This document shows positions 32,823 to 33,470 of a stretch of DNA of 44,065 bases, piece by piece (the stretch's first letter is position 1; every line of letters starts with the position of its first letter). The notes beneath the pieces are model-generated. The model was not told the DNA's origin. It ran no database searches and saw only the letters and a list, made by a program, of their open reading frames with translations. Source of the DNA: a virus (Duplodnaviria > Heunggongvirae > Uroviricota > Caudoviricetes). The DNA lies in IMG/VR virus record IMGVR_UViG_2778261088_000003; one strand, written 5' to 3'. The translations under genes and the position numbers were made by a program.

Positions 32823-33470
32823 ATGAGAAAACTATTACTACCGTTATTATTTATGGCTGGGACTGTTAATGCAGCATCAAGCGTAAAGGAGATTTGTACC
32901 GATTATACGAAATACCTTGGGCACGTTTACGGCTTTGCTGTCAGTCAAGACGAATCCATGCGCAAGAAGTTACTGTCAGATATGAAACGCCTTAAACTTT
33001 CTGAAGCGATGGTGCAGCAAGAACTGTATAAAGTCGCAACCAACGAAAATGCTAAATATCAATATTCTCGCCTATTAAATCCCGACGCAAACGAGATCAA
33101 TCGAAGCTCTTTCGATTATATGGTAAAGGCATGCGAAACCGCTCCTGATTTTGCTATCCCTAGCTGGGGGGTGCTGGTGGCGAGCAATGCCGTTAATAAA
33201 GAAGATGTTGGAAGAAATGGCATTGACTCAATCAGAAATGCCCCAGGAATGCGCCATCAAAACGTTCAGGGTACGCTTGAAGAACGGGCCAGGGGGCCGG
33301 GTACAAACTCCCCAATGGGAAACCTCTCCCCGGAGGAATTGCAAGAGTATAACCAACGGATGGAGCAGTATGAGAAAGCTGCACGCGAAAAAATGGAACA
33401 ACAAAAAAACGGATCTCTTAATACTTTCCAGCAAGGTTTAAAAGCGCTTAATTTACCCTATGAATGGTGA
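32823..33470 (+). CDS. secreted sim-like (superinfection-exclusion-like) protein carrying a Sit-like motif
   Basis: ATG 32823 with GGTGAGG; signal peptide MRKLLLPLLFMAGTVNA; contains NAPGMRHQNVQGTLEERARGPGT. Confidence 0.55.
   Translation: MRKLLLPLLFMAGTVNAASSVKEICTDYTKYLGHVYGFAVSQDESMRKKLLSDMKRLKLSEAMVQQELYKVATNENAKYQYSRLLNPDANEINRSSFDYMVKACETAPDFAIPSWGVLVASNAVNKEDVGRNGIDSIRNAPGMRHQNVQGTLEERARGPGTNSPMGNLSPEELQEYNQRMEQYEKAAREKMEQQKNGSLNTFQQGLKALNLPYEW

Follow-up and report, generated by a model that had tools for sequence, protein, structure and literature searches.

Within a 44,065-nucleotide (nt) stretch of DNA from a virus of the Caudoviricetes (IMG/VR record IMGVR_UViG_2778261088_000003; this whole stretch is the window below), which represents a P1-like (Punavirus) phage-plasmid, a secreted protein encoded at the sim locus shares a conserved segment of about 45 residues with Sit, the tape-measure/injection transglycosylase of the same element. 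The secreted protein, here called ORF-A (open reading frame A; 32823..33470, + strand, 215 amino acids (aa)), belongs to the SimA family; Sit (36223..39615, + strand) has 1130 aa. BLASTP aligned the two proteins over 47 columns with 49% identity (E = 7e-9), and the aligned stretch occupies 33186..33326 (+ strand) in ORF-A, where residues 139-170 of a longer 224-aa numbering (nt 33210-33305) read GRNGIDSIRNAPGMRHQNVQGTLEERARGPGT. The common core, NxxGMRxxxVQGTLEERARGxGT, is NAPGMRHQNVQGTLEERARGPGT at 33237-33305 in ORF-A and NGRGMRREVVQGTLEERARGKGT at 39040-39108 in Sit, with 16 of 20 residues identical from GMR to GT. An earlier note, made from the letters of the sequence alone, had described this near-identical motif, a second partial copy of it in Sit and its conservation at the protein level without recent duplication, and on all three points it proved correct.

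The match stands well apart from shuffled sequences, with a Smith-Waterman score of 101 against 40.2 +/- 5.6 (maximum 69) over 500 shuffles (z = 10.8). An all-against-all comparison of the 100 window ORFs of at least 100 aa gave three cross-matches only, one of which was ORF-A with Sit; the other two were the KilA/Ant paralogs and an artefact of overlapping frames. The PHROG profiles of the two families likewise find each other, ORF-A matching the Sit family (E = 9e-8) and Sit matching the ORF-A family (E = 7e-6).

The shared segment is old and has been kept by selection. The 90-nt core is 63% identical as DNA and uses different codons at 11 of the 19 identical residues, which argues against a recent duplication. 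Nei-Gojobori counts over 26 motif codons in five elements gave a proportion of synonymous differences (pS) of 0.6-1.0, i.e., saturation, and a proportion of nonsynonymous differences (pN) of 0.2-0.4 in nearly all ORF-A/Sit, ORF-A/ORF-A and Sit/Sit pairs, so that purifying selection acts in both families; only the close ORF-A pairs L084/L085 and L078/L080 fall below this range. Identity between ORF-A and Sit (12-19 of 26 residues) is slightly below that within each family (15-20 of 26). By these counts, both copies of the motif appear to be held to one consensus by a common, slowly changing constraint.

The motif is restricted to these two protein families. HMMER was run with a profile of 54 positions, built from the motif segments of Sit and ORF-A, over 1.84 billion representative proteins, and the nine proteins found at E <= 1e-3 all belonged to the ORF-A or Sit families or were fragments of their members; at this sensitivity there was no match in host proteins or in other phage groups. 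The possibility that the motif is an SLT-associated module with a wider distribution beyond P1-like phages, for which phrog_13449 and phrog_669 had provided a lead, was rejected by the same search, and SLT proteins outside the P1 group lack the motif. A homolog search with the 121-aa motif region of Sit returned frameshifted fragments only. SimB, SimC, the family of the neighbouring protein ORF-B, an SH3 protein of one relative (L083) and the alternative tails of some ORF-A proteins (type 2, below) have no segment in common with the window proteins.

Sit is identified by a full-length match to phrog_2533 and by the P1 annotation, and it has the features of a tape-measure protein: a length of 1130 aa, an SLT domain near the C-terminus and the gene order pmgB-sit-pmgA. 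In P1, Sit is an essential tape-measure protein and a virion component, and its SLT domain (residues ~750-900) supplies the tail-associated muralytic activity (PMC9024508, PMC10695390). In the window, the SLT lytic transglycosylase domain covers aa 748-857 (38464..38793, + strand; Pfam PF01464, E = 9e-27), with sequence matches in the PDB to MltC, T7 gp16 and Slt70. Beyond it lies a conserved block, aa 905-964 (38935..39114, + strand), with the consensus TGLAFTPG…GLVDK…KF-N-x-x-GMR-x-x-VQGTL-x-ERA-x-G-x-GT, and the motif shared with ORF-A forms its C-terminal half. In an alignment of Sit lineages down to 47% identity, column conservation of this block is 0.72-0.85, equal to or above that of the SLT domain, while the flanking linkers reach 0.25-0.54. 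The motif was found in all loci with sit in range (63/63) and also in the most divergent Sit recovered (P0038), as IDKARNAPGMRHQVATGSMADRAYG.

The second, partial copy in Sit, GIDGLFDKLRNSPGMRK (39214..39264, + strand), is inside an insertion specific to the P1 lineage, in a region of poor conservation (0.35); Sit proteins of the Salmonella/Klebsiella type have one copy of the motif and lack the second. In an AlphaFold2 model of Sit residues 735-1130, made from a shallow alignment of 12 sequences, the SLT domain has a predicted local distance difference test score (pLDDT) of ~90 and everything after it, including the motif, scores below 56; the motif is not docked on the SLT domain in this model. 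The SLT domain itself occurs as two strongly divergent alleles (GLPEGTLYAIAATESGGNPYAKS… and GLEKGILSAVASAESSAGQRTGNPVDKNG…) within otherwise near-identical Sit proteins, as seen by comparing window positions 38425-38900 (Sit aa 735-890) with P0035, P0055 and P0067. The muralytic module of the tape-measure gene appears to have undergone a swap, and the block beyond it is conserved with either allele. In the Gly/Ala-rich hydrophobic central region of Sit (aa ~330-345; 37200-37260), the string LLMGRGMLKK contains a GRGM that resembles the motif core, probably by chance.

ORF-A matches phrog_3933 (E = 5e-137 over residues 10-224 of the longer form). An alternative in-frame ATG upstream, at 32796, would give a protein of 224 aa, and the true start is probably the second ATG, at 32823, because a GGTGAGG Shine-Dalgarno sequence precedes it and both the homologs and phrog_3933 begin there. 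The first residues form a predicted Sec signal peptide of the signal peptidase I type without a lipobox (MRKLLLPLLFMAGTVNA/ASS; 32823..32873, + strand, read from the translation), whose n, h and c regions are kept in the family alignment. The mature protein has two Cys residues that are invariant in the family, consistent with a periplasmic disulfide, and it is presumably located in the periplasm.

The mature protein begins with a conserved helical domain of orphan fold (32874..33197, + strand), defined by AlphaFold2 and the family alignment. In the model, which was built from a shallow alignment of 17 sequences, residues ~20-125 form this domain with confidence (pLDDT > 90), the segment of ~130-168 that carries the motif scores 42-58, and a C-terminal helix (170-208) scores 60-78. 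The motif segment is therefore probably a flexible linker, followed by a variable tail (33327..33467, + strand) that is predicted to be helical and is swapped between lineages. Fold searches with ORF-A found no relatives among solved structures (PDB), and NCBIfam and Pfam gave nothing above cut-off. The N-terminal domain (32925-33176; aa 34-118 of the 224-aa form) has a match below threshold to the Pfam family PF14566, PTPlike_phytase (E = 8e-6; 26.4 bits, cut-off 27). The same match exists as a precomputed one for many ORF-A homologs; the fold searches gave no support for it.

The position of ORF-A is exactly that of the P1 sim locus, given the elements that flank it. On one side is the immI region (C1 operator, c4, icd, ant), where the C4 antisense RNA (32443..32528, - strand; Rfam RF01695, 70 bits, E = 5e-13) fixes the identity of the locus and is accompanied by its c4-a1b1 target (32597-32649, - strand; Rfam RF03163). 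On the other side of ORF-A and ORF-B is the series pmgC, tub, pmgB and sit, in synteny with P1 and with Escherichia phage vB_EcoM-Ro157c2YLVW. A sequence like the C1 repressor operator (Op51/Oc4-like, AATGCTCTAATAAATTT; 32710..32726, - strand), recognized from the sequence and by mapping from the P1 annotation, stands between c4 and ORF-A. In the P1 genome record (L001), the corresponding protein_bind feature is at 4111-4127 and a predicted PsimA promoter lies just downstream of this operator, at 4133-4159. ORF-A is transcribed divergently from c4-icd-ant and is not downstream of these genes, as the earlier note had placed it. The region of the C1 operator and PsimA is 95-97% identical to P1. 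Over nt 32600-34100 the window is 98.7% identical to vB_EcoM-Ro157c2YLVW, and P1 itself matches over the first 363 nt only. Among P1-like elements, the sim region is known to be hypervariable, a hot spot of exchange (PMC9603915).

The 52-aa SimA of P1 agrees with this placement. Its residues 1-45 are identical to residues 1-45 of ORF-A (window 32796-32962 compared with L001 4197-4355), and the two sequences diverge after that point, into simB-simC in P1. The identity stops where simB-simC begins, which shows that the simA annotated in P1 is a remnant, a stump left by cassette replacement, and that ORF-A is its intact, full-length counterpart. Of 69 viral loci, 24 have the full 215-aa form, 14 a short form, 7 divergent forms and 24 the stump only, and about half of the P1-like plasmids have only the stump. 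In PLSDB, 267 plasmids match and 84 of these cover at least 80% of ORF-A. The 28 ORF-A homologs are all from P1-like phage-plasmids of ~90 kb in E. coli, Salmonella and Klebsiella, and several are labelled 'simA domain protein' by their sources.

In the window, no simB or simC was found, so that these operon partners of P1 are replaced by ORF-B, a second secreted protein of the cassette (33522..33998, + strand, 158 aa; phrog_3429, with relatives that carry PF27224, YfjT). Elsewhere, ORF-A is a real component of sim operons, because homologs of SimB (59% identity) and SimC (44%) follow an ORF-A homolog in one relative (L085, 480-2214) and a SimC-like gene follows it in another (L045, 9974-11448). 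The ancestral operon may accordingly have had three genes, simA-simB-simC, with SimA at full length. ORF-B homologs are found 3' of ORF-A in L078 (11150-11650), L083 (7581-8087) and L084 (10646-11140), with 28-34% identity to ORF-B and up to 64% among one another. ORF-B carries a signal peptide, and Cys and Trp residues in it are conserved.

Within the ORF-A family, the N-terminal domain and the core N-x-x-G-M-R-x-Q are nearly invariant. Type 1 proteins continue with the Sit-like x-V-[QE]-G-[TS]-L-x-x-R-A-[RY]-G-x-G. The family has several unrelated tails, and the recombination junctions fall at the edges of the motif, namely after GMRxQ, EERA (L042) or RARGPG (the 163-aa form). The short form (163-165 aa, mostly 163) ends at or just past the motif (…RARGPGVAP*), and sit is present near the 163-aa forms by tblastn. 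In L083 (7001-9258; NZ_AP027490.1) and also in L029-L041, a 163-aa ORF-A that stops 5 residues past RARG precedes two further genes, one for an ORF-B homolog and one for a 389-aa protein that ends in an SH3 domain, which makes an alternative sim-locus cassette. A metagenome scaffold from a highly divergent P1-like element (L082), which encodes the divergent Sit P0038, keeps the Sit motif but has no immI/sim region between a 166-aa gene and pmgC. The sim locus is evidently absent at that position in some lineages.

From the perspective of phage entry, we suspect that ORF-A may be a periplasmic decoy that interferes with incoming Sit at DNA entry by molecular mimicry, a reading that we consider plausible, if somewhat short of an even chance. 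In this scenario, a P1-like phage would contract its tail on a lysogen and extrude Sit into the periplasm, where the post-SLT block would have to engage a partner, either a host envelope component or another tail-tip protein, to open the path for DNA. Resident ORF-A, if expressed in lysogens, would show the same linear motif in the periplasm, compete for the partner and abort DNA entry; the prophage's own tails, being assembled in the cytoplasm, would escape. A decoy fits an exported protein of an exclusion locus that carries a conserved, Sit-derived part on a flexible linker. The low pLDDT of the motif beside a confidently modelled domain is what a linear motif on display would give. Sim is reported to block the DNA injection of superinfecting P1 (PMC8546580, citing Devlin 1982 and Kliem & Dreiseikelmann 1989), and exclusion proteins that act on the conduit formed by tape-measure or ejection proteins are established in HK97 gp15, TP-J34 Ltp and P22 SieA (PMC10883804). 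Our literature search found no report of an exclusion protein with a copy of a tape-measure segment. That the motif engages a host envelope partner and that ORF-A excludes phage at all, as the earlier note proposed, is pure inference. The more specific version, in which full-length SimA is a viral self-mimic that shows the exact Sit epitope for a conserved envelope factor opening the inner-membrane DNA path, is possible but doubtful.

Several observations weigh against a decoy. The P1 SimA stump lacks both the helical domain and the motif. P1 thus has no motif-bearing form but does show Sim exclusion, and the classical sim phenotype, which Maillou and Dreiseikelmann reportedly attributed to SimC in 1990, therefore does not require the motif. 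ORF-A is not SimC under another name: the earlier note's description of a sim-like protein holds for the locus, the signal peptide and the kinship with SimA, but BLASTP of the SimC proteins of P1 and L085 against all window ORFs gave no match at E <= 0.05. Type 2 members of the ORF-A family retain N-x-x-GMR-x-Q only and have lost VQGTLEERARG in favour of an unrelated, Cys-containing tail, and VQGTLEERARG is therefore dispensable for whatever role type 2 proteins play. Hence the motif persists among ORF-A relatives in its GMR core but not throughout.

Similarly, the Sit motif, which the earlier note expected to co-occur with that of Sim homologs, is universal among relatives but independent of the state of ORF-A. 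Elements with a full-length, a truncated or no ORF-A all have the same motif sequence in Sit, and there is accordingly no sign of an arms race. ORF-A and Sit of the same element are no closer (15.4 of 26 residues over five pairs) than those of different elements (14.3 of 26), which led us to reject co-variation or gene conversion within an element and indicates neither recent gene conversion nor lineage-specific co-evolution. Apparent hints of co-variation (NSR/NSR, NAP/NAP and G.GV/G.GV) are too few and confounded by phylogeny. One Sit (P0038) and one ORF-A (P0039) both have GSM for GTL, and nothing links them to one element; the contigs with P0039 are only ~1.2 kb long and the contig with P0038 has no sim region at that position. 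A promoter scan upstream of ORF-A detected no strong sigma-70 site; the P1 annotation predicts PsimA beside the C1 operator. PADLOC gave 0 matches, and we know of no host factor for P1 DNA entry.

Alternatively, ORF-A may have a function unrelated to exclusion, as a prophage 'moron' in which the segment is a generic periplasmic site that ORF-A and Sit each use on their own (for instance in protease processing or chaperone docking) or a captured fragment retained as a linker. We place this on the unlikely side, though it is by no means far-fetched. Recombination has left the sim locus, a hot spot of such exchange, with mosaic cassettes whose junctions lie at the motif edges (PMC9603915). Natural forms end right past the motif or, in type 2, swap its second half, ORF-A is paired with another secreted protein, ORF-B, and the lack of ORF-A/Sit co-variation is in keeping with such an origin. 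However, a passive linker would not keep 17-19 of its 26 motif residues while synonymous sites saturate, the absence of the motif from host proteins among the 1.84 billion representatives argues against a generic host recognition site, and the gene is within a locus dedicated to exclusion.

It is also conceivable, but in our view unlikely, that the motif is a self-association element through which Sit chains oligomerise once they are ejected, and that the copy in periplasmic ORF-A acts as a dominant-negative binder. It would insert itself into the oligomer of incoming Sit, or into the tail tip while this is open, and so poison the formation of the conduit. This would still be exclusion, with a phage protein as the target and no shared third partner. 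The two GMR copies in Sit of the P1 lineage could pair with each other, the motif is found in two families only and in no host protein, and the tape-measure protein appears to be what TP-J34 Ltp and HK97 gp15 act on (PMC10883804). Set against this, Sit of the Salmonella/Klebsiella type has a single copy, the AlphaFold2 models predict neither ordered structure nor self-contact for the motif region, and direct binding would tend to give same-element co-variation of ORF-A and Sit, of which there is none.

T4 Spackle inhibits the gp5 tail lysozyme, and by analogy the post-SLT segment could regulate its own SLT domain in cis, with the ORF-A peptide inhibiting that of an incoming phage. This is very unlikely. 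The Sit motif does lie ~85 residues past the SLT domain, in a block that is kept with either SLT allele, and phrog_13449 ('transglycosylase', 269 positions) spans both. Nevertheless, AlphaFold2 places a confident SLT domain beside an undocked motif with pLDDT below 50, strong divergence of the SLT alleles with a constant motif is the opposite of what is expected for a peptide that binds the active site, SLT domains outside the P1 group lack the motif, and no solved structure was found to resemble the fold of ORF-A. Similarity by chance, or as an artefact of low complexity, has next to no likelihood, since the match, short as it is (~45 residues), holds across divergent members of both families and this explanation is refuted by BLASTP, the reciprocal PHROG matches, the profile search and the shuffles.

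Two other features of the window lie outside this argument. The KilA-like protein (30181-30996, - strand) and the Ant antirepressor (31146-32219, - strand) have in common a C-terminal domain of 200 residues (51% identity, E = 2e-63), which identifies them as paralogs encoded in adjacent operons. Near the end of the window (43570-44006, - strand), peptide strings recur in several overlapping ORFs (…SVADGCLAGCKVVCSLD…), a sign of direct repeats in the DNA, perhaps in the tail-fibre region.

The sim locus was described as a superimmunity gene in 1982, and the passage of P1 DNA across the periplasm and inner membrane, together with the block of that step by sim, are questions on which the motif gives a handle. 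This handle is concrete, namely 25-45 residues that only the injection protein and one secreted product of the exclusion locus have in common and that selection maintains in both. If the self-mimic version is true, ORF-A would be the first superinfection-exclusion protein shown to copy a linear motif of the injection machinery, and the motif would pinpoint both the P1 DNA-entry factor and a functional site in Sit. Looking for mimicry of virion linear motifs may also be a way to find exclusion genes in other prophages.

Among known systems, the closest is simA-simB-simC of P1, which occupies the same locus and encodes secreted proteins, with SimA matching the first 45 residues of ORF-A and with SimB and SimC homologs following ORF-A in some relatives. 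It differs in that the window has ORF-A and ORF-B, and ORF-A is unrelated to SimC, the characterised effector. T4 Spackle (Sp) is likewise small, periplasmic and encoded by a myovirus, and its target during superinfection is a tail-borne muralytic enzyme. ORF-A has no sequence or fold likeness to Spackle, and the motif it shares with Sit is outside the SLT domain, with no predicted contact to it. The defence nuclease SNIPE works where the phage genome is injected and makes contact with the tape-measure proteins of siphoviruses (PMC13190303), but it is a membrane protein of the host, has a DUF4041 domain, cleaves DNA on the cytoplasmic side, is unrelated in sequence and does not mimic a tape-measure protein. 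In HK97 gp15, TP-J34 Ltp, Tuc2009 Sie2009 and P22 SieA, envelope proteins of prophages block DNA entry after adsorption, and escape maps to tape-measure or ejection proteins (PMC10883804, PMC3952083). For ORF-A, the corresponding link to the tape-measure protein is the sequence match with Sit. Those exclusion proteins are inner-membrane proteins or lipoproteins with no reported sequence likeness to their target, whereas ORF-A, a candidate for a soluble protein of the periplasm, contains a copied tape-measure segment, and its phage is a contractile-tailed myovirus.

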